Shown: positions 3,121 through 25,195 of the stretch, in pieces | How the letters are laid out: each line of letters opens with the position of its first letter | Position numbering within the stretch: the first letter of the stretch is position 1 | Source: a virus | Taxonomy: Duplodnaviria > Heunggongvirae > Uroviricota > Caudoviricetes | DNA: 29,570 nucleotides | IMG/VR virus record: IMGVR_UViG_2778261297_000001 | Direction: 5' to 3' (one strand) | The notes under the pieces: generated by a model | The model's database searches: none | Told to the model about the DNA's origin: nothing | The model's input: only the letters and a program-made list of their open reading frames with translations | Program-made: the position numbers and the translations under genes

Positions 3121-3711
3121 ATGTCTCGAATTTTTGCTTACTGTCGGATATCAACGCTGGATCAGACCACCGAAAATCAACGCCGGGAAATCGAAAGTGC
3201 AGGTTTTAAAATCAAACCTCAGCAAATAATCGAAGAACACATTAGCGGCTCAGCAGCAACCAGTGAGCGTCCTGGTTTTAACCGGTTGCTTGCTCGCCTG
3301 AAATGTGGTGATCAATTGATTGTGACAAAACTGGATCGCCTTGGTTGTAATGCAATGGATATCAGGAAAACAGTGGAACAACTGACCGAAACAGGTATCA
3401 GAGTGCATTGCTTAGCATTGGGGGGCATTGACCTGACCAGTCCAACAGGAAAAATGATGATGCAAGTAATTTCAGCAGTCGCTGAATTTGAACGAGACCT
3501 TTTACTTGAACGCACTCATTCCGGGATAGTAAGAGCCCGGGGCGCAGGGAAACGTTTTGGTCGACCACCTGTGTTAAATGAAGAACAGAAACAGGTGGTA
3601 TTCGAACGAATTAAGTCAGGTGTAAGTATAAGTGCCATTGCCCGGGAATTCAAAACCTCGCGGCAAACCATTTTAAGAGCCAAAGCAAAACTTCAGACAC
3701 CTGACATATAA
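3121..3711 (+). CDS. pinQ: Serine recombinase / DNA invertase PinQ (196 aa)
   Basis: Resolvase-invertase family features: N-terminal catalytic serine context [10 protein letters not shown]-terminal HTH; recalled as Qin/Rac Pin protein. Confidence 0.85.
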
Positions 3712-3808: not shown

Positions 3809-6798
<2,990 letters not shown>

Positions 6799-6824
<26 letters not shown>

Positions 6825-7344
6825 TCAGCAACCCCGGTATCAGTTCATCCAGCGCGGCTGCTTTGTTCATGGCTTTGATGATATCCCGTTTCAGGAAATC
6901 AACATGTCGGTTTTCCAGTTCCGGAAAACGCCGCTGCACCGACAGGGGGATCCCGTCGAGAATACTGGCAATTTCACCTGCGATCCGCGACAGCACGAAA
7001 GTACAGAATGCGGTTTCCACCACTTCAGCGGAGTCTCTGGCATTTTTCAGCTCCTGTGCGTCGGCCTGCGCACGCGTAAGTCGATGGCGTTCGTACTCAA
7101 TAGTCCCTGGCTGGAGATCTGTCTCGCTGGCCTGCCGCAGTTCTTCAACTTCCCGGCGCAGCTTTTCGTTCTCAATTTCAGCATCCCTTTCGGCATACCA
7201 TCTTATAACGGCGGCAGAGTCATAAAGCACCTCATTACCCTTGCCACCGCCTCGCAGAACGGGCATTCCCTGTTCCTGCCAGTTCTGAATGGTACGGATA
7301 CTCGCACCGAAAATGTCAGCCAGCTGCTTTTTGTTGACTTCCAT
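6799..7344 (-). CDS. nu1: Terminase small subunit Nu1 (181 aa)
   Basis: Translation MEVNKKQLADIFGASIRTIQNWQEQGMPVLRGGGKGNEVLYDSAAV.. matches lambda Nu1; winged-HTH N-terminus. Confidence 0.9.
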
Positions 7345-9086: not shown

Positions 9087-9431
9087 GATGGTGTTAACTC
9101 CAGTCATCGCTGGCACTACCACTGCTGGTTCAGAGTTAAAAAAACTATGATTTTTTTCATGATGTTACCGTAGTATGTGAGTATCCATCGAATAGACACC
9201 AAGCAAAAAAGCTCCCGAAGGAGCCTTCATTTTCACTTTTTTAAATCCAACGACAGACGGCTGGCATTTAAGTATTGTGAAATATTATCAAATGTAATCA
9301 TCATTGATTTACAAAAGATACATTTTGCCCCGAAAGGATTCATGTCAGAAACATCAAAAGATGATGTTCTATACTGGGAACCATGACAACACGGGCATCT
9401 AAAGTGAATATGGTTTGTAATATTGTCTACC

Positions 9432-9644
9432 TCAAAGCGCCACTACATGAACAGCGGCAGGACCTTTAGGTCCGTTCTCAATACCAAATTCAACTTCCTG
9501 ATTCTCAGTTAATGTTTTGAAATCGTTGCTCTGAATTGCTGAGAAATGGACAAACACATCTTTGCTGCCATCTTTCGGCGTGATGAAACCAAAACCTTTT
9601 TCAGGGTTAAACCATTTCACTAAACCAGTCATTTTGTTAGACAT
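9432..9644 (-). CDS. cspI: Cold shock protein CspI (70 aa)
   Basis: CspA-family cold shock domain with RNP motifs KGFGFI and VFVHF; sequence recalled as CspI. Confidence 0.9.
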
Positions 9645-10005
9645 AATTATTACCTTTTGAAGAAATTAGCCCTTGGGCAGAATGGTCCGAAAAAAATATC
9701 AGAGAGAAAAACCAACAAGGAAATCTCAAGAGGTACAAATAATAAAATTATAACAATGACTGCTTCAGATAAATTTGTAACAAACCAGAACACCATTAAC
9801 GCATGATTAACCACCCATAGCAAGGATTACTTTTGTAAAGAAAAACACAGCAATGAAAGAATAGCTTTATTTATTAATAAAACGTGTCATTCTGATTAAG
9901 ACCTTTTATCTTACCCTTAAGATTTCAGGAATTTTGGCTCATGGAAGAGTCCTTTTTATTTAAATTTTACATTCCGCGATGTAAATGTTCCGATTTAATA
10001 TTACC

Positions 10006-11033
<1,028 letters not shown>

Positions 11034-11088
11034 GGATATTTATCAGGATGCTACCAATGAAAGATACTGGAAAGCCAACTGCAAAAAG

Positions 11089-11403
11089 CTAACAACCCGT
11101 AATCGAGTTATCTGAACTGTTAATTTTTATGGTATACCGAGCCTCTGAACAGGGTCGCGTTTCTGGCAACAGCTCGTCCCCTTCACATAACCCGGCAGCA
11201 ACATCCAGGAAGACCTGTCTGATGCTCCTTCTGGCTGCTGCCTCATAAAACTCCAGCGCGGCACCTTCAACACGGTCCAGCGAGATGTCCAGGTCAAAAA
11301 TTTCACCGTCAAAGCGTTCTTTGTCCCGTAACGCTAAAGTTACCGTAACTTTATTCTCAAAATTGCGGATCCCTTTCACAATCAGTTCATATTTTTGAGT
11401 CAT
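11089..11403 (-). CDS. ydfR: YdfR-like protein (104 aa), function unknown, between holin and endolysin
   Basis: ORF MTQKYELIVKGIRNFENKVTVTLALRDKERFDGEIFDLD..; position inside lysis cassette. Confidence 0.65.
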   Translation of the reverse strand: MTQKYELIVKGIRNFENKVTVTLALRDKERFDGEIFDLDISLDRVEGAALEFYEAAARRSIRQVFLDVAAGLCEGDELLPETRPCSEARYTIKINSSDNSITGC

Positions 11404-11407
11404 TGAA

Positions 11408-11623
11408 TTACTCTCCCCGTGCAGCCTTACGCTTGTCTTCTTTAATCTTGAAATAAAGGTTTGTCAGATACGTCAGCATGCCAAATACCAGACTACCCAA
11501 TACACCTATTGCCGCCCACTGTGAGGGCGTGACTTTATCGAGCAACTGTAAAAACCAGTAGCCAGCACTGCCTGCAGAGGTGCTGTAGGCGATGCCCGTT
11601 GTTAACTTATCCATGGATTTCAT
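11408..11623 (-). CDS. essQ: Class II holin (phage 21 S-like pinholin, 71 aa) with dual-start motif MKSM
   Basis: Translation [71 protein letters not shown]; two TM helices; matches S21 family from memory. Confidence 0.85.
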
Positions 11624-11813
11624 AGCCTCACCTCCGCAGATAACGGATGGTGTACACGGTTTGGTTCGAAGAAGGAAAGAAGTTACATTAGCGTAAGGCC
11701 CGAACATCTATTCAAAAAGAAAAACGCCAGCAATTATTCTGGCGTAGCTAAAAATATCGTATAATCTTACACTTCAAAAAATAACTTTATAAAATGCCAT
11801 CACATCATATCTT

Positions 11814-12536
11814 CTAAGAAAATCTTGATAAATATTGGTGCGGAGGCACACCAAAATATCCTCTAAAAACACTTACAAAATATGATGCATTGTCATACCC
11901 GCATATTCCCGCCACCTTGCCGACAGTATGGTTACTGTAGATCAATAATCTTTGCGCCATCATCATTCGTTCTTCAAGAATTAATTTACTAAACGATAAT
12001 CCTTCGTCTTTTAATTTTCTTTTTAACAAACTCTCGCTCATATATAATCTTGAAGATATATCACAAAGTCTCCATGACGCTGAGATATCCGAGTGAATAA
12101 TAGCCTTAACTTTACAACCTAAGCTATTAAGACTTCCGAACAAAAAACTTTGCACTATTTTCTCTGAAGATAAGACAGCAAGACATGCAAGTGATATTTG
12201 ATTTCTAACTACATCCACGGTTTTGCTATCACAATTCAAGCATGCAACCAAGTTCTTTAACAATGAAAAATCTTCACATTCTACTATCAAGTATGACGGA
12301 TAAAACCTTCTTACAGAAAAAGGTGAGAGTGTGTAGTTTTTAAAGAAATCATTAACTGTTTTCTCCTCAACATCTACGATCATTAGATGATCTGTATTTG
12401 ACGAAAAAAGATCTTTTAAATTGTATTCAATGAGAACAGCATTTCCTTTTTTAAACAAAATATCTTCTTTACCAATTCGGACACCAAACGAGTTCAACAC
12501 CAAAATGATAGAACATATGTATGGCATATTATCCAC
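11814..12536 (-). CDS. AraC/XylS-family transcriptional regulator (240 aa), prophage moron
   Basis: C-terminal AraC-type HTH signature (..GKVAGICGYDNASYFVSVFRGYFGVPPHQYL); AT-rich gene between late promoter and holin. Confidence 0.8.
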   Translation of the reverse strand: MDNMPYICSIILVLNSFGVRIGKEDILFKKGNAVLIEYNLKDLFSSNTDHLMIVDVEEKTVNDFFKNYTLSPFSVRRFYPSYLIVECEDFSLLKNLVACLNCDSKTVDVVRNQISLACLAVLSSEKIVQSFLFGSLNSLGCKVKAIIHSDISASWRLCDISSRLYMSESLLKRKLKDEGLSFSKLILEERMMMAQRLLIYSNHTVGKVAGICGYDNASYFVSVFRGYFGVPPHQYLSRFS

Positions 12537-12933
12537 CTGATATCATTGGGGTTACACCAGGTAAGTATAGGTGGAAAATCAATATTCGCCAGTTCAACAA
12601 TAAGGAAAATCTCATTGCATCACAACTATAAAACCATGTGTTTAACTCACAAAAAACAAATCATTAAACTAATCTGTTATATTATAATAGCTGCGTGCAA
12701 TAATAATATTATATGCTCTTAATATTCACTTGAAATATCTTCATATAAAAACAGATTGAATAAAATCTTTTGGGGCTGGTATGTTTACCAACATTAAATT
12801 GCATCTCAATGTTTTCTTTAGCGTGAACAGGATTTTTATAAAAACTGACACTATGAGCATCATAGCGTAGTTTTTACGATTGTAAATATCCTGCATACAG
12901 GAACTCATCACTTTCAGATGATATCGCATACAG

Positions 12934-13893
12934 TTAATTCACCATCAGTCTTAGAGCCAGTTCTTCCGGATAGGGATCGAAGTAATTCTGTGTAAGCAAG
13001 TAATCATTAGGATACTCACCCAGATAATGCTTCAGCAGAGTCAACGGCGCAAGAAGAGGCAATGTGCCAAAGCGATAGTTAAGTATAACCTCGCTCAACT
13101 CTTTACGCTGGCGTGTACTTAAGTAATTACTAAAATACCCCTGTATATGCATCAGCACATTCGTGTGATTTTTACGTGATGCTGGTTTTCTGAGAATCGC
13201 CATCAGATTATCACGATACACCTCAAAGTATGATTCAAGGTCCGCCCACTCGTGTATTGCAGCCACAAATGGTCCCATATCTTTATAGCCTGCCTGGCTA
13301 TGCGCCAACAACTGAAGCTTATAACGACTATGAAAAGCTAATAACTCTCTTCTTGATAATTTCTCCTTGTAAAGGTGATTGAGCTCATGCAAAGCAAAAA
13401 CTCTTTCAATAAAATTCTCACGAAGCACTGGATCATGTAATCGCCCATCCTCTTCAACCGGTAGCCAGGAAAACTTTTCCATCAAAGTGCTCGTAAATAG
13501 TCCCACTCCATCTTTACGACCTCGATTACCATTTTCATCATAGACACGCACGCGCTCCATGCCACAGCTGGGAGATTTAGCACAAACCACAAACCCCGAT
13601 ACATCCTTTAATTTGTCCATATAAGAACGACTAAACTCTGTCATTCTCTCTGTCACATCCTCATTCTGGTCGTGGCTGAAACACATCCGTATATTTCCTT
13701 GCTTCGAGCGCACAAGTCGTAGAGCAGGACGCGGAACTGGCAGCCCTATAGCCATTTCCGGACATACTGGTCTGAATGTTACCCATTCCACTAATTTGTC
13801 CATTAAAAAGTCATCTCTTTTGTGACCACCATCAAAACGAACAGCAGAACCGCCCAAACAACCGCTGATCCCAATCACAGGTTTTTTTATCAT
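12934..13893 (-). CDS. DUF523 (TudS-like thiouracil desulfidase fold) fused to DUF1722 (YbgA-like) protein, 319 aa
   Basis: N-terminal motifs GISGCLGG..VRFDGG, PVCPE and KSPSCG resemble DUF523/TudS Fe-S ligand motifs; C-terminal half resembles YbgA/DUF1722; domain assignment from memory. Confidence 0.7.
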   Translation of the reverse strand: MIKKPVIGISGCLGGSAVRFDGGHKRDDFLMDKLVEWVTFRPVCPEMAIGLPVPRPALRLVRSKQGNIRMCFSHDQNEDVTERMTEFSRSYMDKLKDVSGFVVCAKSPSCGMERVRVYDENGNRGRKDGVGLFTSTLMEKFSWLPVEEDGRLHDPVLRENFIERVFALHELNHLYKEKLSRRELLAFHSRYKLQLLAHSQAGYKDMGPFVAAIHEWADLESYFEVYRDNLMAILRKPASRKNHTNVLMHIQGYFSNYLSTRQRKELSEVILNYRFGTLPLLAPLTLLKHYLGEYPNDYLLTQNYFDPYPEELALRLMVN

Positions 13894-14085
13894 TTCCTCC
13901 CCCTTGACTAATTCATTAACACATAAACTTTGTAGTGCACGGACTAAATTGCCTTTCTGGCTTCATCACTGACAATTTTTCTGTTATTGACTATTCCTAA
14001 TATAGTAGGAAAGTTCTTTAAGTGATCGGTCGTACTCATCTATCTTTCATACTTACTCTCAACTATCAAAAGTACAGGATTTATT

Positions 14086-14610
14086 ATGAAGTTATGGCCT
14101 GTGTTGACTGGCATTGCACTCTCTTTCACTCTTATAGCATGTAAGGCCCCGACACCACCTAAAGGTGTGCAGCCGATTACAAATTTTGACGCCAACCGCT
14201 ACCTCGGAAAATGGTATGAAATAGCTCGCCTCGAGAACTGGTTCGAACGTGGTCTGGAACAGGTCAGCGCTACTTATGAAAAACGGAACGACGGAGGGAT
14301 TCGCGTACTTAACCGTGGATACGATCCAACGAAAAACAAATGGAGCGAGAGCGAAGGTAAAGCATACTTTACTGGAGATACTAAAACTGCAGCGTTGAAA
14401 GTTTCGTTTTTTGGCCCCTTCTATGGTGGCTATAATGTAATCAAACTGGATGATGAGTATAAGTATGCTCTTGTCAGTGGTCCGAACAGAGAATACCTAT
14501 GGATTCTGGCAAGGACCCAAACTATTCCAGATAATGTAAAAGCAGACTATGTGCGTACCGCTCAAAAGTTGGGATTCAATGTCAATGAACTATTATGGGT
14601 TAAACAATAA
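14086..14610 (+). CDS. Bacterial lipocalin (Blc-like) outer-membrane lipoprotein, 174 aa
   Basis: Signal peptide with lipobox LIAC; lipocalin motifs GKWYEIAR and FFGPFYGGYNVI; about 60 percent identical by eye to E. coli Blc. Confidence 0.85.
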   Translation: MKLWPVLTGIALSFTLIACKAPTPPKGVQPITNFDANRYLGKWYEIARLENWFERGLEQVSATYEKRNDGGIRVLNRGYDPTKNKWSESEGKAYFTGDTKTAALKVSFFGPFYGGYNVIKLDDEYKYALVSGPNREYLWILARTQTIPDNVKADYVRTAQKLGFNVNELLWVKQ

Positions 14611-14636: not shown

Positions 14637-14665
14637 AGAAAAAAACCAGCCTTTGGGGAGGCTGG
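14637..14665 (-). terminator. Rho-independent terminator on minus strand about 100 nt downstream of Q (candidate tR')
   Basis: Hairpin CCAGCCT-loop-AGGCTGG followed on minus strand by run of 8 T. Confidence 0.55.
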
Positions 14666-14765
14666 CTAAATCAGGAAACAAGCTGTTATATGATAATAAC
14701 TACGTTGCGATTCCAACATTTAAAATGTTAGACTAATGAAAATCAGACAGCAACTTTTCCTTTAA

Positions 14766-15158
14766 TTATTTCGAACAATCAGCATCCATCTCCAATCGGA
14801 GATCCAACACCATCAGCATGCCCTCCACTACGCCCTCAGCTTTCTGGAGCATCCTGCCAACCCAACAATCAGATCGCCCATGCTTACGTGCAAGCGCCAT
14901 AAAAGTCATGCCGCCGACATAATAGTCCACCAATAAATCATGTAAATCGCTGTTGTTTTTTTTCAGGCGAGCCATACATTCACAAATGATCATCGCGTCA
15001 TCGTCACAGCATTGCGGACGAGATCTTACTTTTGAAGGAATTAATCCCTTAAAACCGGCGGCAATGGACGACCAGGTCACATCTTCATGATTATTAGCCG
15101 CCCATGCCCCCCAACGCTCAAGAACCATCTGAATATCACGCATCAACTTACTCCACAA
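14766..15158 (-). CDS. Late antiterminator Q, small 21/82/933W-type family (about 125-130 aa)
   Basis: Cys-rich Zn-binding region ([17 protein letters not shown]) and overall similarity to small Q proteins of lambdoid Stx-type phages; located immediately upstream of terminator and late genes. Confidence 0.7.
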
Positions 15159-15160
15159 AA

Positions 15161-16210
15161 TTAGGCCAGCACACCAATTGCCAGCGCGCGATCGATAAAT
15201 CGAAAAATCAGCTCCAGTTGGGAGCCATACTTCTCTTCAAATGCCACGGTATCCGTATGCAACTCGTCGTGATGCTTTCTGCACAAAGGCAACACAAAGA
15301 GATCATGTGCTTTGGTTCCCATTCCGCCCTGCCCGTGACCAATCAGATGATGCGGATCGTCGGCTGGCATACCGCAGCAAGCACACGGCTGTGTCTTAAC
15401 CCAGCGTGTGTATTTCTCCTTAACCCAACGGTGACGTTTAGGCAGCTTCATGAAAGATTCCGGAGACTCTGGATCAACGGTGATGCTTACCACCGTCTTT
15501 TCTTGTGATGGGTTTTGTTGCTGGTGGGCGTGAGGCAACGGTGCAAGATTTTTTGTGCGCTGTTTCAGTATGCTGGTGGCGGTCTGCTCTCCCGGTACGA
15601 TGTCGCTTTCACGGTACATTGAGCGGATTTTTTCCGCACGCAACCCCAGCGAACGACGTAATACCGCTTCCGGTAGCGCGTCCGCCACCTGATTGCGGAC
15701 CGCCCACCAGGATAATTCAGCCAGAGATAATTCACGCTCCTGCGTACCGCTTATTGCGTGACCGATGACGTCAATCATCCATGCTGACAGGTTTTGATGA
15801 GCTAGTTGCTCGAGTGATTCGGATGTCTGGTCACGCAGCTGGTTGTCGCAGTGCCAGCACAACACCATTGCGCCGGTACCATAACGGTGAATGACGGTTT
15901 CGCTGTGATGATAATCGCCGTGTGGCCACTGGCAGGATTTAATATGGCGCAACAGCCAGTCAGACAATGCACCAGCACCACCAGCAGCACGAATCACCCG
16001 TGCGTTACTGAAAAACGGCAGCAATGTTTTGTCTTCCACCAGCGGCTGGCGAGCGGCAGGAACGACCCCGGACGGCAGATTACGCATGCTTTTCGGTTCC
16101 GGCTCCACCAGTAACCGGGTATTGTGGAATACCGGCATGGGTTCACGGCCCGGCTTAACGATCACCAGCCCGAGTTCCGGTACCAGAACAGGTCGAAGTA
16201 ATACCCGCAC
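15161..16210 (-). CDS. DUF968 protein (YdfU-like, 349 aa) with C-terminal HNH/Zn-ribbon-like motif
   Basis: C-terminal [43 protein letters not shown] cysteine/histidine cluster; nin-region position upstream of Q. Confidence 0.7.
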
Positions 16211-20386: not shown

Positions 20387-20444
20387 TTTTCTGGTGACGT
20401 TTGGCGGTATCAGTTTTACTCCGTGACTGCTCTGCCGCCCTTTT
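20387..20444 (+). ncRNA. dicF: DicF small regulatory RNA (about 53 nt plus terminator U-tail)
   Basis: Sequence TTTCTGGTGACGTTTGGCGGTATCAGTTTTACTCCGTGACTGCTCTGCCGCCCTTTTT matches DicF from memory, including the UUUCUGGUGACG seed and intrinsic terminator. Confidence 0.75.
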
Positions 20445-21084: not shown

Positions 21085-23556
21085 ATGAGTAAAGTCTTTA
21101 TTTGCGCCGCTATTCCTGACGAACTGGCAACAAGGGAAGAAGGCGCTGTGGCTGTAGCCACAGCCATTGAAGCTGGCGACGAACGCCGTGCTCGAGCAAA
21201 ATTTCACTGGCAGTTCCTGGAACATTATCCGGCTGCTCAGGACTGCGCTTATAAATTTATTGTCTGCGAGGATAAACCTGGCATACCCCGCCCTGCCCTC
21301 GATTCATGGGATGCTGAATATATGCAGGAAAACCGCTGGGATGAGGAGTCTGCTTCTTTTGTCCCGGTTGAGACTGAATCCGATCCGATGAACGTCACTT
21401 TTGACAAGCTGGCCCCTGAAGTACAGAACGCTGTCATGGTTAAGTTCGACACATGTGAAAACATCACCGTTGATATGGTTATTAGCGCACAGGAATTGTT
21501 GCAGGAAGACATGGCAACATTCGACGGACATATCGTTGAAGCGTTGATGAAAATGCCAGAAGTTAACGCCATGTATCCGGAGCTTAAGTTGCACGCCATT
21601 GGGTGGGTTAAGCATAAATGTATTCCTGGTGCTAAATGGCCCGAAATTCAGGCAGAGATGCGCATCTGGAAAAAACGTCGCGAAGGTGAACGCAAGGAAA
21701 CCGGAAAATACACGTCTGTTGTTGATCTCGCCCGCGCCAGAACCAATCAACAGTACACTGAAAATTCAACAGGAAAAATCAGCCCGGTCATTGCTGCCAT
21801 TCATCGCGAATACAAGCAGACATGGAAAACACTGGATGACGAACTGGCCTACGCTCTCTGGCCTGGTGATGTGGATGCCGGAAACATTGACGGCAGCATC
21901 CATCGCTGGGCAAAAAAAGAAGTTATCGACAACGACCGCGAAGACTGGAAGCGTATCTCGGCATCAATGCGCAAACAGCCTGATGCCCTTCGCTACGACC
22001 GCCAGACTATTTTTGGCCTTGTCCGTGAGCGTCCGATCGACATTCACAAAGATCCCATAGCACTGAACAAATATATCTGCGAATACCTGACGACAAAGGG
22101 CGTGTTTGAGAATGAAGAAACAGACCTGGGCACTGTTGATGTTCTCCAGTCATCAGAAACACAAACTGATGCAGTGGAAACTGAGGTATCTGATATCCCA
22201 AAAAATGAAACCGCGCCGGAAGCTGAACCATCTGTAGAGCGTGAGGGGCCGTTCTATTTCCTCTTCGCAGATAAGGACGGAGAAAAATACGGTCGCGCAA
22301 ACAAACTTTCTGGTCTGGATAAGGCACTGGCTGCTGGCGCCACTGAAATCACAAAAGAAGAATATTTTGCCCGAAAAAATGGCACATACACGGGCTTACC
22401 GCAAAATGTAGATACCGCTGAAGATTCAGAACAACCAGAGCCGATAAAAGTTACCGCTGACGAAGTAAACAAAATTATGCAGGCAGCCAATATCAGCCAG
22501 CCTGACGCCGATAAGTTGCTTGCTGCATCACGTGGTGAATTTGTTGAAGGGATTAGTGACCCGAATGATCCGAAATGGGTTAAGGGGATCCAGACCCGCG
22601 ATTCTGTGAACCAGAACCAGCATGAATCGGAACGGAACTACCAAAAAGCGGAACAAAACAGCACAAATGCGTTACAAAACGAGCCAGAAACGAAACAGCC
22701 TGAACCAGTGGCGCAACTGGAAGTGGAAAAAGTCTGCACCGCCTGCGGTCAGACCGGCGGCGGCAACTGCCCTGATTGTGGCGCGGTGATGGGCGACGCA
22801 ACATACCAGGAAACATTCGATGAAGAGTATCAGGTTGAAGTTCAGGAAGATGATCTGGAGGAAATGGAAGGCGCTGAACATCCACACAAGGAGAACACTG
22901 GCGGCAATCAGCATCACAATAGCGATAATGAAACTGGCGAGACGGCAGATCACTCAATTAAGGTGAACGGTCATCACGAAATCACATCCACCAGCAGGAC
23001 GTGTGACCATCTAATGATCGACCTTGAAACCATGGGAAAAAATCCTGATGCCCCGATCATCTCAATAGGTGCAATATTTTTCGATCCGCAAACCGGAGAT
23101 ATGGGACCGGAATTTAGTAAGACTATCGATCTGGAAACTGCTGGCGGAGTCATTGATCGGGACACCATTAAATGGTGGCTTAAGCAATCACGCGAAGCGC
23201 AATCTGCCATTATGACCGATGAAATCCCGTTAGATGATGCACTGTTACAATTGCGGGAATTTATCGACGAAAACTCCGGTGAATTTTTTGTTCAGGTTTG
23301 GGGAAATGGAGCCAACTTCGACAACACGATTTTGCGCCGTTCATACGAACGGCAGGGGATCCCCTGCCCGTGGCGTTACTACAACGATCGCGATGTACGC
23401 ACAATCGTTGAGCTGGGGAAAGCCATAGACTTCGATGCCAGAACGGCTATTCCATTCGAAGGTGAGCGCCATAATGCACTTGATGACGCCCGTTACCAGG
23501 CAAAATACGTTTCAGTTATCTGGCAAAAACTGATCCCGAGTCAGGCTGATTCTTAA
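21085..23556 (+). CDS. RecE-like (exodeoxyribonuclease VIII-like N-terminal/middle region) protein with Zn ribbon and C-terminal DEDDh 3'-5' exonuclease domain, 823 aa
   Basis: Middle segment DADKLLAASRGEFVEGISDPNDPKWVKGIQTRD recalled from Rac RecE; CTACGQTGGGNCPDCG zinc ribbon; C-terminal motifs IDLETMG (Exo I), WGNGANFDNTIL (Exo II), HNALDDARYQ (Exo III). Confidence 0.8.
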   Translation: MSKVFICAAIPDELATREEGAVAVATAIEAGDERRARAKFHWQFLEHYPAAQDCAYKFIVCEDKPGIPRPALDSWDAEYMQENRWDEESASFVPVETESDPMNVTFDKLAPEVQNAVMVKFDTCENITVDMVISAQELLQEDMATFDGHIVEALMKMPEVNAMYPELKLHAIGWVKHKCIPGAKWPEIQAEMRIWKKRREGERKETGKYTSVVDLARARTNQQYTENSTGKISPVIAAIHREYKQTWKTLDDELAYALWPGDVDAGNIDGSIHRWAKKEVIDNDREDWKRISASMRKQPDALRYDRQTIFGLVRERPIDIHKDPIALNKYICEYLTTKGVFENEETDLGTVDVLQSSETQTDAVETEVSDIPKNETAPEAEPSVEREGPFYFLFADKDGEKYGRANKLSGLDKALAAGATEITKEEYFARKNGTYTGLPQNVDTAEDSEQPEPIKVTADEVNKIMQAANISQPDADKLLAASRGEFVEGISDPNDPKWVKGIQTRDSVNQNQHESERNYQKAEQNSTNALQNEPETKQPEPVAQLEVEKVCTACGQTGGGNCPDCGAVMGDATYQETFDEEYQVEVQEDDLEEMEGAEHPHKENTGGNQHHNSDNETGETADHSIKVNGHHEITSTSRTCDHLMIDLETMGKNPDAPIISIGAIFFDPQTGDMGPEFSKTIDLETAGGVIDRDTIKWWLKQSREAQSAIMTDEIPLDDALLQLREFIDENSGEFFVQVWGNGANFDNTILRRSYERQGIPCPWRYYNDRDVRTIVELGKAIDFDARTAIPFEGERHNALDDARYQAKYVSVIWQKLIPSQADS

Positions 23557-23899: not shown

Positions 23900-25195
23900 A
23901 TGAGAGAAGTTGAAATGAAATATCCGACAGGCGTGGAAAACCATGGAGGGAAATTACGTATCTGGTTTGTTTATAAAGGCGTAAGAGTCAGGGAAAATCT
24001 GGGGGTTCCTGACACAGCAAAAAACAGGCGCGTTGCAGGTGAACTACGCGCCTCTGTTTGTTACGCAATAAAAACTGGTGTTTTCGACTATGCAAAACAG
24101 TTTCCCTCCTCACGCAATCTGGAAAAATTTGGTGAGGCCCGACAAGATTTAACCATAAAAGAACTGGCTGAAAAATTTCTGGCACTGAAAGAAACTGAAG
24201 TCGCAAAAACATCACTCAACACATACCGTGCCGTCATCAAAAATATCCTGAGCATAATCGGTGAAAAAAATCTTGCCTCATCGATTAATAAAGAAAAATT
24301 ACTGGAGGTTCGTAAAGAGCTACTGACTGGATACCAGATCCCCAAAAGTAACTATATTGTTACACAACCAGGGAGATCGGCTGTAACTGTAAATAATTAC
24401 ATGACAAATCTTAACGCCGTGTTCCAGTTTGGTGTTGATAACGGTTACTTGGCAGATAACCCGTTTAAGGGGATCTCGCCATTAAAGGAATCAAGAACCA
24501 TTCCGGATCCTCTTTCGCGGGAGGAATTCATCCGTCTTATCGATGCGTGCAGAAATCAGCAAGCCAAAAATTTATGGTGTGTTTCTGTTTATACTGGCGT
24601 TCGCCCTGGTGAGCTGTGTGCACTTGGATGGGAGGACATAGATCTGAAAAATGGAACAATGATGATCAGGAGAAATTTAGCAAAAGACCGTTTCACGGTA
24701 CCAAAAACACAGGCGGGAACCAATCGGGTCATTCATCTTATTAAGCCAGCAATCGACGCTCTCCGGAGTCAGATGACATTAACGAGACTGAGCAAAGAGC
24801 ATATCATTGATGTTCACCTCAGAGAGTATGGCAGAACAGAAAAACAAAAATGCACCTTTGTTTTTCAACCTGAAGTGTCAGCGAGAGTAAAAAATTATGG
24901 TGACCATTTTACCGTTGACTCAATAAGGCAGATGTGGGACGCAGCGATAAAACGTGCCGGACTCCGCCATCGAAAATCATATCAGTCGAGACATACTTAT
25001 GCCTGCTGGTCGCTGACAGCTGGTGCTAACCCGGCATTTATAGCAAACCAGATGGGCCATGCAGATGCGCAAATGGTATTTCAGGTATACGGAAAATGGA
25101 TGTCTGAAAACAATAATGCACAGGTAGCTTTGTTAAATACACAGTTAAGCGAGTTTGCCCCAACCATGCCCCATAACGAAGCAATGAAAAATTAA
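23900..25195 (+). CDS. intQ: Tyrosine site-specific integrase (lambda Int family), apparently intact, 426-431 aa
   Basis: Phage-integrase C-terminal catalytic region (..VYTGVRPGELCALGWEDIDL.., ..RHTYACWSL.., ..QVYGKWM..); 3' end faces att core at 25233; start may be internal Met at 23915. Confidence 0.9.
   Translation: MREVEMKYPTGVENHGGKLRIWFVYKGVRVRENLGVPDTAKNRRVAGELRASVCYAIKTGVFDYAKQFPSSRNLEKFGEARQDLTIKELAEKFLALKETEVAKTSLNTYRAVIKNILSIIGEKNLASSINKEKLLEVRKELLTGYQIPKSNYIVTQPGRSAVTVNNYMTNLNAVFQFGVDNGYLADNPFKGISPLKESRTIPDPLSREEFIRLIDACRNQQAKNLWCVSVYTGVRPGELCALGWEDIDLKNGTMMIRRNLAKDRFTVPKTQAGTNRVIHLIKPAIDALRSQMTLTRLSKEHIIDVHLREYGRTEKQKCTFVFQPEVSARVKNYGDHFTVDSIRQMWDAAIKRAGLRHRKSYQSRHTYACWSLTAGANPAFIANQMGHADAQMVFQVYGKWMSENNNAQVALLNTQLSEFAPTMPHNEAMKN

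Follow-up and report, generated by a model that had tools for sequence, protein, structure and literature searches.

A stretch of Caudoviricetes DNA of 29,570 nucleotides (IMG/VR record IMGVR_UViG_2778261297_000001; hereafter, the window) carries at 14,086–14,610 on the plus strand a gene that probably encodes a functional lipocalin lipoprotein of the Blc family and travels as moron cargo in the Q–holin slot of Qin/lambda-type prophages of E. coli. That blc is a prophage moron has been known since a report of 2020, and the gene is not novel. New here is its apparent descent: blc and its RudS-type neighbor seem to have originated in a module of stress genes belonging to other gut bacteria.

The Lipocalin Gene and Its Product

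The span 14,086–14,610 (+) coincides exactly with an ATG-to-stop open reading frame for a product of 174 amino acids. It is a real gene, whose product is assigned to the Blc-family lipocalins with a predicted lipoprotein signal. Pfam Lipocalin_2 (PF08212) matches residues 35–174 (E 7.5e-43, profile positions 2–146 of 146), and the NCBIfam model for the outer membrane lipoprotein Blc (NF007786) scores 312.6 bits against a curated cut-off of 267, in a full-length alignment spanning 1–174 of 176 profile positions. Among solved structures it comes closest to those of E. coli Blc (3mbt, 1qwd and 2aco; E 1e-65 to 1e-67), with which it aligns without gaps at 62% identity (E 8e-67). Together with the open reading frame and dN/dS, these matches identify the coding sequence as a lipocalin lipoprotein of the outer-membrane type, belonging to the group termed below clade A (“Blc2”).

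A type II (lipoprotein) signal peptide with the lipobox LIA/C19 and Lys at +2 is predicted at 14,086–14,142 (+) from a regular expression and hydrophobicity. The N-terminus, MKLWPVLTGIALSFTLIAC, has a basic start and a hydrophobic core (mean Kyte-Doolittle value 1.86) before L-I-A-C. Cys19 is invariant across 15 relatives, and a sequence check found Lys, not Asp, at +2, as outer-membrane sorting requires. The lipocalin motifs GKWYEIAR, GKAYF and LWILAR are likewise invariant across relatives; a first-pass annotation of the window had already recognized the lipobox and such motifs. An AlphaFold2 model was built from a shallow alignment of 15 sequences, all homologues at hand being at least 69% identical. 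In this model seven strands, as compared with the eight of the lipocalin fold, make up the barrel region and a helix comes after them; it was set aside for pocket comparison and fold search since its quality is too poor (pLDDT 57.5, pTM 0.46).

Relation to the Blc of E. coli

A blastn search of complete E. coli genomes with the phage gene never reached the chromosomal blc, so the two were compared as proteins. The K-12 Blc reference was checked against two E. coli loci (L027 and L033; 174–176 of 177 residues identical) and against the PDB alignments. Phage Blc is 59% identical to K-12 Blc over 174 amino acids and 62–62.5% identical over the mature part; the earlier estimate by eye, about 60 percent, was accurate, and the protein is indeed a second, divergent Blc homologue. 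Over the mature protein, identity is 77–82% to clade A as against 58–65% to the E. coli-type clade (clade B). The alignment and phylogeny that had been proposed as a check set phage Blc in a separate paralog clade. In a neighbor-joining tree it groups with clade A in 158 of 200 bootstraps (79%), or 184 of 200 (92%) with Symbiopectobacterium included, and not with the clade B proteins of E. coli, Salmonella and Citrobacter. Its nearest relatives come from Enterobacter, Leclercia, Cedecea and Klebsiella, and several genera possess both paralogs, A and B. Phage Blc is, on this phylogeny, a member of the second enterobacterial paralog clade and not an ortholog of E. coli blc, in keeping with its earlier description as a xenolog, as opposed to a recent duplicate.

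E. coli Blc (b4149; PDB 1QWD, 2ACO, 3MBT) has in common with the phage protein its family, length, lipoprotein signal and the motifs GxWYEIAR, GKAYF and LWIL.R, and the two are probably alike in their periplasm-facing site at the outer membrane and in binding hydrophobic ligands. They differ in sequence (only 59–62% identical), paralog clade, 5′ region and genomic context. In K-12, the chromosomal gene lies in gdx(sugE)-blc-ampC; these neighbors are absent around 14,086–14,610, where the context is Q, RudS, AraC and holin. The 38% of residues that differ from E. coli Blc could alter the ligand specificity of clade A. The clade A proteins of Enterobacter, Leclercia, Cedecea, Klebsiella, Buttiauxella and Scandinavium, which are 77–82% identical to phage Blc, are annotated as lipocalin family protein or Blc. 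Another mobile second Blc gene in E. coli is the Citrobacter-derived plasmid blc of ISEcp1-blaCMY-2-blc-sugE; unlike the phage gene, with which it has ~67% DNA identity, it belongs to the E. coli/Citrobacter-type clade and moves with ampC.

The Prophage Slot and Its Cargo

The prophage is lambdoid and of the Qin type, and its blc occupies the slot between the antiterminator Q and the holin. In the window it is cryptic and structurally deleted, with no head or tail genes. Q (14,766–15,158, −) is identified by Pfam Phage_antitermQ (E 8e-51) and by the RefSeq name “antiterminator Q family protein” in an identical locus, and is flanked by DUF968/ydfU (15,161–16,210, −). At the other end, an essD-type holin gene (11,408–11,707, −), recognized from its open reading frame and from the RefSeq annotation of the identical region in another locus (L001), closes the accessory slot and starts the lysis cassette of holin, lysozyme and Rz (10,006–11,707, −). 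All of these genes are on the minus strand, and blc on the plus strand opposes the late operon, as the first-pass annotation had stated.

Divergent from blc is a RudS-type gene (12,934–13,893, −) for a protein of 319 amino acids, in which Pfam finds a DUF523/TudS desulfidase domain (2-thiour_desulf, E 5.8e-40) fused to DUF1722 (E 9.4e-40); we take the function of RudS from PMC11417400. The third cassette gene (11,814–12,536, −; Pfam HTH_18 and HTH_AraC) encodes an AraC-family regulator, has 33% GC and is bracketed by a promoter-like site at 12,886–12,859 and a terminator at 11,745–11,724. The AraC-family protein is 47% identical over 160 amino acids to PsrA/ECs1087 of O157 Sakai. An identification of the cassette as the O157 PsrA locus was rejected on account of this 47% and of the lack of blc and RudS beside psrA in Sakai Sp4, whose Q–holin slot is filled by other cargo. 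In the Qin prophage of K-12, the slot is occupied by cspB/cspF.

The blc cassette is found on several lambdoid backbones. Its GC content is 0.30–0.46, as compared with 0.51–0.57 for ydfU, lysozyme and terminase. Such an AT-rich cassette (blc GC3 0.41, AraC gene 33% GC) could be silenced by H-NS, which would speak against expression in the lysogen. As an accessory insertion of deviant composition between conserved phage modules, blc looks like a moron, and its earlier placement as such in the Q-to-lysis slot of a lambdoid prophage stands. Lambda Bor/Iss are likewise lambdoid lipoprotein morons adjoining the lysis cassette, on the opposite side of the lysis genes in related phages, and are unrelated to lipocalins in sequence and fold. 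They are outer-membrane lipoproteins, oriented against late transcription and expressed in lysogens. Bor provides serum resistance, whereas no such role is known for lipocalins.

Chromosomal Relatives and the Origin of the Pair

Chromosomal clade A blc genes are divergent from a gene for an MlrA/CarH-like MerR regulator and adjoin either RudS or an operon whose last gene is CFA-synthase-like. All 14 MerR-bearing clade A loci examined combine MerR with RudS or with a SnoaL-SDR-FAD oxidase-DUF1365-CMAS operon, and the regulator accompanies the blc-RudS pair in nearly all chromosomes examined. The phage locus has RudS, blc and the ancestral blc 5′ region, and the MerR gene is absent. A Huaxiibacter locus (L011) also has RudS and blc and no MerR; phage genes were sought around it and none were found. 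Rather than a prophage, it is a chromosomal locus that lost the regulator independently.

As in the Enterobacter/Leclercia-type clade A loci, blc of the phage is divergently paired with the RudS-type gene, whose product is 70–73% identical to those encoded next to chromosomal clade A blc. Amino-acid identity to chromosomal homologues is 80% for Blc and 72% for RudS, and the phage genes have a GC3 of 0.41 (blc) and 0.40 (RudS); the clade A chromosomal blc copies differ, with 0.53–0.76. These comparisons indicate that blc and the RudS-type gene are co-inherited as a divergent pair. The first-pass annotation did not mention that blc is one arm of such a co-captured pair.

It is possible, if on balance doubtful, that the two genes form a regulator-less module against near-UV and photo-oxidative stress, giving E. 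coli lysogens a protection otherwise lacking. RudS would strip photosensitive 4-thiouridine from tRNA, and the lipocalin would handle photo-oxidised lipids or photosensitising porphyrins in the envelope. A companion proposal, to be held just as tentatively, is that lambdoid phages took the pair from an enterobacterial locus controlled by an MlrA/CarH-like MerR, the regulator being lost. Such a module agrees with the co-inheritance of the divergent pair in phages and chromosomes, with the similar divergence of both genes from their chromosomal homologues and their similar composition shift, and with the MlrA/CarH-like regulators as chromosomal partners. The adjoining SDR/FAD oxidase/DUF1365/CFA-synthase-like operon resembles LitR-controlled light-inducible clusters of Pseudomonas (PMC9758184), and RudS genes typically lie in light-responsive operons (PMC11417400); the LitR comparison is based on these two papers. 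In addition, heme/porphyrin is bound by E. coli Blc (PMC8177097). However, a light response of the enterobacterial MerR regulators is conjectural, their similarity to CarH is weak (60 bits), and linkage by itself is no proof of shared function. The two genes are on opposite strands and rudS would also be covered by the late transcript, so the timing of their expression may differ, and little light reaches E. coli in the gut.

Candidate Promoters and Terminators

The RudS-like gene and blc are separated by a divergent intergenic region of 192 bp (13,894–14,085), the blc-proximal half of which aligns as a homologue of the chromosomal clade A MerR-blc intergenic region. Divergent phage alleles have 5–6 differences in the blc-proximal 102 nt vs. 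14–15 in the distal 90 nt, and the promoter-proximal region of blc is more conserved than synonymous sites. An alignment of the DNA 5′ of phage RudS with that 5′ of RudS in one chromosomal locus (L003) yielded no convincing homology; demonstrable ancestry is confined to the blc-proximal half. Within the 5′ regulatory region common to the phage and clade A genes lies a conserved core, AATATAGTAG (13,999–14,008; chromosomal AATATACTAC), at the same distance of 87 nt from the ATG as in the chromosomal loci. Both motif and spacing are conserved in 13 MerR-bearing loci, and the core is probably the −10 element of a leftward promoter. On either side of it are GAATA/GAAT repeats, which may form a MerR operator. 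Only the loci of the phage and Huaxiibacter, the two that lack MerR, have degenerate versions of them; the clade A chromosomal copies have an adjacent MerR gene and intact repeats, whereas the phage copy has neither.

Candidate −10 elements for blc itself, CTATCTT and CATACTT (14,040–14,054, +), align with the conserved CTACACTT of chromosomal homologues (CTATACTT in Symbiopectobacterium). They resemble sigma-S-type −10 elements and may serve as the blc promoter; the phage element has C or A for T at −12, and the chromosomal C at −13 is missing. A simple sigma-70 scan of the plus strand of 13,894–14,085 found no 9-of-12 site and no strong promoter. A Shine-Dalgarno-like ACAGGA (14,074–14,079, +), 6 nt 5′ of the ATG, aligns with AAAGGAG in homologues.

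On the far side of the gene, a terminator scan and RNA folding point to a tR′-like intrinsic terminator for leftward transcripts, GCCAGCCUCCCCAAAGGCUGG followed by U7 (14,644–14,667, −), between Q/pR′ and the blc 3′ end. On the plus strand the same hairpin has no U tract, and no canonical terminator for blc was found. A putative pR′-like promoter, TGGAGA-18-AATAAT (14,765–14,794, −), lies at the end of Q, where a lambdoid pR′ is expected; the match (9 of 12) comes solely from a consensus scan.

We propose that blc is transcribed in the lysogen from its own sigma-S-like promoter at about 14,040–14,054, independently of late transcription. The latter would be antisense to blc and, in the repressed prophage, would halt at the tR′-like terminator (14,667–14,644). 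With its cognate regulator missing, the gene has probably escaped the control in force at the donor locus. The conserved 5′ region with its sigma-S-like −10 element and purifying selection suggest that the lysogen expresses it.

Distribution and Selection

With thresholds of at least 95% nucleotide identity and at least 80% coverage, blc is present in 1045 of 5426 complete E. coli genomes (~19%). The gene itself is ordinary, yet few cargo genes are as common in the lambdoid prophages of E. coli. The entire 3.5-kb cassette occurs in 848 complete E. coli genomes, and blc also in 12 isolated lambdoid phages; some copies of the gene or cassette are IS3-disrupted or truncated.

Mathieu et al. reported in 2020 that blc is a moron in >50% of 19 infant-gut Lambda phages, and noted many membrane-protein morons (PMC6969025), a publication that the first-pass annotation had omitted. 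Their gene is the one described here: the copies of Lambda_2E9, 1H12, 4B5 and the ev series have 96% amino-acid identity and occupy the equivalent slot. The authors list blc and suggest membrane biogenesis, with no phylogeny, link to RudS or MerR, or experiment. A search of the literature on expression or function of the prophage copy returned nothing beyond this listing.

Between phage alleles, dN/dS is 0.07–0.10 for blc (dS 0.17–0.19) and 0.11–0.14 for the RudS-type gene. With dN/dS near 0.1, purifying selection acts on both. Selection clearly maintains blc, and lysogens presumably draw some benefit from it. These values are hard to reconcile with the gene being a silent passenger, carried along with the Q and lysis modules but neither expressed nor useful in E. 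coli, a reading we regard as unlikely. An AT-rich composition typical of H-NS-silenced DNA, the failure of the sigma-70 scan to find a strong consensus promoter and the existence of disrupted or truncated copies would all fit it. Yet the open reading frame is intact in more than 1000 genomes and on different lambdoid backbones, the promoter-proximal region is better conserved than synonymous sites, and blc has been kept even in the structurally decayed prophage of the window.

Proposed Role in the Lysogen

Under the preferred reading of blc as a functional lipocalin, the precursor would be exported by Sec and lipidated at Cys19 via Lgt, LspA and Lnt. Lys rather than Asp at +2 would let Lol deliver it to the inner leaflet of the outer membrane. 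Its beta-barrel cup may bind hydrophobic molecules of the envelope, candidate ligands being lysophospholipids and fatty acids, both of which E. coli Blc has been shown to bind, and perhaps a tetrapyrrole. In this way the protein would aid envelope lipid homeostasis under stationary-phase or photo-oxidative stress. E. coli Blc binds lysophospholipids and fatty acids and is induced by stress and in stationary phase (RpoS) (PMC8177097); stress-induced expression, nanomolar binding of lysophosphatidylethanolamine and binding of heme are on record (PMC8177097, PMC7026729).

Far less probable is a role in superinfection exclusion, with the lipoprotein, like Cor or T5 Llp, masking or inactivating a phage receptor of the outer membrane. 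Known exclusion lipoproteins are outer-membrane lipoproteins from prophage accessory slots. Phage Blc is predicted to be the same, and membrane-protein morons are many (PMC6969025). Nevertheless, its sequence shows no relationship to known exclusion proteins and scores above the Blc subfamily threshold, and the genes nearest to it are chromosomal, of the housekeeping type and outside phage contexts. Lipoproteins of the Blc type are oriented toward the periplasm, with small lipids as their ligands, and no result points toward exclusion. A last reading, in which 14,086–14,610 is just the blc of the chromosome or a recent copy of that gene, has family membership and nothing else in its favor; it is refuted by the flanking Q and lysis genes in place of gdx-blc-ampC, by the 59–62% identity, by the blastn result and by its clade.

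As a distinct paralog coupled to a RudS-type tRNA de-modifying partner and lacking the regulator, prophage Blc gives rise to hypotheses in which the envelope and tRNA are protected against stress from light or stationary phase. RudS has been described in print as absent from E. coli, a claim that needs qualifying given the RudS-type gene in prophages of the species. Levels of lysophosphatidylethanolamine in the gut, and inflammation, have been tied to E. coli Blc (PMC7026729), and a prophage-borne second Blc in many strains could therefore confound such studies. If the pair does act against photo-oxidative stress, about 1 in 5 E. coli strains would express from a prophage a protection against light stress with which E. 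coli is not credited; this could aid survival of lysogens in sunlight outside the gut, or translation after UV induction of the prophage.

Identity and Setting of the Prophage Lipocalin

The phage blc gene (14086–14610, + strand, an open reading frame from ATG to stop) encodes a protein of 174 aa. Its residues 35–174 match Pfam Lipocalin_2 (E 7.5e-43), and over its whole length it scores 312.6 bits with the NCBIfam model "outer membrane lipoprotein Blc", above the curated subfamily cut-off of 267 bits. The top solved-structure matches are those of E. coli Blc (3MBT, 1QWD and 2ACO; E 1e-65 to 1e-67, no gaps). In the N-terminus, MKLWPVLTGIALSFTLIA followed by C, a basic start precedes a hydrophobic core and the lipobox L-I-A-C; Cys19 is invariant among relatives. 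The first-pass annotation had reported a lipocalin with a lipoprotein signal peptide (lipobox LIAC) and about 60% identity to chromosomal Blc, and all of this was borne out: the protein shares 59% identity with K-12 Blc over 174 aa and 62–62.5% over the mature part. Of its 177 residues, the K-12 Blc sequence used in this comparison has 174 and 176 in common with those of two E. coli chromosomal loci.

The window corresponds to the Qin prophage locus on an E. coli chromosome. It carries a ydfJ-like MFS gene (501–1784), a pin-type invertase (3121–3711), terminase and nohA (4899–7344), the lysis genes Rz, lysozyme, ydfR and holin (10006–11707, −), antiterminator Q (14766–15158, −), ydfU/DUF968 (15161–16210, −), an exonuclease (21085–23556) and an integrase (23900–25195), past which lie genes like rspB, rspA, ynfA and speG. 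Rfam places the DicF sRNA at 20389–20440 (+) and a cspA 5′-UTR thermoregulator at 9405–9789 (−), upstream of a cspI-like cold-shock gene; both are typical Qin-prophage features. The ORF at 3809–4699 (−) is a hybrid of a lambda-type portal, represented by its N-terminal half, and a tail-fibre assembly (gpK/Tfa) domain; the head and tail genes have therefore been deleted and this prophage copy is cryptic. The full structural module is present in a related strain (L001). An Rfam IS009 match (3843–4041) falls inside the fusion ORF. The accessory cassette is intact despite the structural deletion.

Three accessory genes occupy the Q-to-holin interval: an AraC-family regulator (11814–12536, −), a 319-aa DUF523+DUF1722 protein (12934–13893, −) and the lipocalin. 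As noted at first pass, blc runs opposite to the late operon; since the late genes of the phage all lie on the − strand, it is antisense to late transcription. The chromosomal blc locus is ruled out as the identity of 14086–14610: K-12 blc lies in the order gdx-blc-ampC, and here Q and the lysis genes flank. The AraC gene (33% GC) has its own promoter-like and terminator-like sites, and its product shares 47% identity with PsrA (ECs1087) of O157 Sakai across 160 aa and has weak matches of the YdeO/GadX type. It may add to the prophage regulators that act on acid-resistance genes; at least one strain (JS316) has a frameshifted copy.

A Second Enterobacterial Blc Paralog

Beyond the prophage lineage, database relatives from Cedecea, Scandinavium, Pantoea, Klebsiella, Lelliottia and others reach 76–80% identity, far more than the 59% to the host's own Blc. 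When one genome per species was scanned, Blc identities to the window protein were bimodal. Clade A (69–79%) includes Enterobacter mori, E. sichuanensis, E. intestinihominis, Leclercia, Huaxiibacter, Buttiauxella brennerae and Symbiopectobacterium, and clade B (55–61%) includes the b4149 orthologues of E. coli, E. ruysiae, Salmonella and Citrobacter. The two are paralogs, because Huaxiibacter, Buttiauxella, Cedecea and Scandinavium carry both. A neighbour-joining tree of mature proteins groups phage Blc with clade A in 158/200 bootstraps (184/200 when Symbiopectobacterium is included), which assigns it to the second Blc paralog clade and upholds the proposal of a xenolog rather than a recent duplicate. 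The initial observation was correct in all details; the finding is real and its interpretation right.

GC3 is about 0.40 in phage blc and in its divergent neighbour, vs. 0.53–0.76 in chromosomal clade-A homologues. These genes were not recently acquired from a sequenced Enterobacter-like genome, and the low GC3 points to either a long stay in AT-rich phage accessory DNA or an unsampled low-GC donor.

Capture from a MerR-Controlled Module

Chromosomal clade-A blc (as at loci L002–L005, L007–L010, L018 and L092–L097) has an MlrA-like regulator of the MerR family as its divergent partner in 14 of 15 Enterobacteriaceae loci examined; the best NCBIfam matches of the regulator are MlrA (193 bits, below cut-off) and CarH (60 bits). 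Beyond it lies one of two gene sets. The first, whose side is cut off on one short contig type (L094, L095), consists of a periplasmic transthyretin-like protein, which E. sichuanensis lacks, together with a DUF523+DUF1722 protein of 319 aa; the second is a SnoaL-SDR-FAD amine oxidase-DUF1365-CFA-synthase-like operon. The sole exception, Huaxiibacter locus L011, has blc with the transthyretin-like and DUF523-DUF1722 genes in a non-phage context without MerR. At the two Symbiopectobacterium loci, the most divergent in clade A, none of the above neighbours was seen.

The fusion of DUF523 (TudS) with DUF1722 is of the RudS type, a tRNA 4-thiouridine desulfidase. Its genes are described as usually lying in light-responsive operons controlled by MerR/LitR regulators, and Salmonella is said to have RudS (ORF319) but E. 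coli not (PMC11417400). Against that statement, at least 848 complete E. coli genomes out of 5426 carry prophage rudS. The phage RudS-type protein is 70–73% identical to those encoded beside chromosomal clade-A blc. The phage cassette therefore represents part of the chromosomal module, keeping the two genes in their original divergent order: blc was captured together with the RudS-type gene, and the regulator was lost, the transthyretin-like gene also being missing.

Putative Transcription Signals

Upstream of phage blc, 100 nt can be aligned with the chromosomal MerR-blc intergenic region. The core AATATA(C/G)TA(C/G) lies 87 nt from the ATG in the phage and 82–90 nt in chromosomal loci (exactly 87 in four). 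The phage CATACTT (14048–14054) aligns with a −10-like element, CTACACTT in chromosomes and CTATACTT in Symbiopectobacterium; CTATCTT (14040–14046) overlaps it. The sigma-S −10 consensus is CTAYRCTT, which both phage and chromosomal elements resemble, and this fits what is known of E. coli blc, namely its induction by stress and in stationary phase.

The full chromosomal intergenic motif reads GAATAnnCTC-AATATACTAC-GAAT. Its flanks, GAATA...CTC and GAAT, are conserved in 13/13 MerR-bearing loci compared and degenerate in just the two MerR-less ones, the phage and L011. The flanks may be the MerR operator and the core a putative −10 of the leftward promoter, a reading that is suggestive only, because there are only two independent MerR losses. 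Divergent phage alleles differ at 5–6 positions in the blc-proximal 102 nt vs. 14–15 in the distal 90 nt, so the proximal half is more conserved than synonymous sites of the flanking genes (dS 0.17–0.29).

On the 3′ side, an intrinsic terminator for leftward transcripts (14667–14644, −; a 9-bp GC-rich stem, then U7) lies just downstream of a pR′-like promoter match at the Q end, the position expected of tR′. By lambdoid biology, pR′ transcription in the repressed prophage would end there before antisense entry into blc, and Q-modified polymerase would pass through. As the + strand hairpin at this site is without a U tract, blc has no canonical terminator of its own.

Distribution

The window gene occurs in 1045 of 5426 complete E. 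coli genomes (≥95% nucleotide identity, ≥80% coverage), and the 3.5-kb AraC-to-Q segment in 848. The cassette occupies the same slot on Qin-like, DLP12-like and lambda-like (with P/ren/nin) backbones, and is carried by plaque-forming free phages: one, IdasGreatGrand, came from swamp mud, and 11 are Lambda-like records of infant-gut E. coli. Phage blc is an already annotated accessory gene of a known family, published as a moron by Mathieu et al. (PMC6969025); the literature yielded no functional study of it.

Tblastn of 50,697 phage records found no further convincing phage-borne relative except in Morganella phage IME1369_01 (KY653118.1, 26242–26745), whose lipocalin lipoprotein is 50% identical to the window protein. 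This temperate phage apparently acquired its Blc-like gene independently. The other matches were contigs of bacteria, an unannotated fragment of 1.5 kb and two large contigs labelled Acinetobacter (35% identity). A 2.1-kb contig binned as "Candidatus Nanosynbacter sp." (L006, JARKOR010000135.1) carries the E. coli prophage lipocalin at 97% identity and is almost certainly a mis-binned prophage fragment. Some large E. coli plasmids (NZ_CP081685.1 and NZ_JBTLGS010000001.1; matches H58 and H59) carry a lipocalin gene that shows ~74% identity to the window gene over its first 329 nt; the CMY-2-linked blc of Citrobacter is more distant (67%), and the plasmid gene may be a copy of clade A.

Possible Function

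The clade-A neighbourhood has either RudS or the SDR, FAD oxidase, DUF1365 and CFA-synthase-like operon, and seems to be the enterobacterial equivalent of the LitR-controlled, light-inducible clusters of Pseudomonas, which encode photolyase, SDR, FAD oxidoreductase and the furan fatty-acid synthase UfaM (PMC9758184). Because of this likeness, RudS and Blc could be thought a near-UV/photo-oxidative stress pair, a reading that we consider rather improbable. Lytic-growth expression of rudS, which is on the late-operon strand, could also occur. Exclusion of superinfecting phage by the lipocalin, raised at first pass, finds no support. The selection data are at odds with a silent-passenger model for blc: dN/dS between the two major groups of phage alleles is 0.07–0.10 at dS 0.17–0.19 for blc and 0.11–0.14 at dS 0.29 for rudS, which is evidence of purifying selection on both, and both are intact in 5/5 copies compared.

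By the established +2 rule of lipoprotein sorting, the Lys at residue +2 would make phage Blc a substrate for Lol-dependent outer-membrane sorting. E. coli Blc is reported to bind lysophosphatidylethanolamines (nanomolar), fatty acids and heme/tetrapyrrole (micromolar) (PMC8177097), and a Blc point variant alters LPE levels in the bacteria and in the gut (PMC7026729). Since the cognate MerR gene is missing, blc has probably escaped its ancestral control; it is likely expressed in the lysogen from the retained putative sigma-S-like promoter. From lipoprotein biogenesis and Blc biochemistry, we infer that the protein would be exported by Sec, lipidated at Cys19 and placed by Lol on the periplasmic face of the outer membrane, where its beta-barrel cup would bind hydrophobic envelope molecules.
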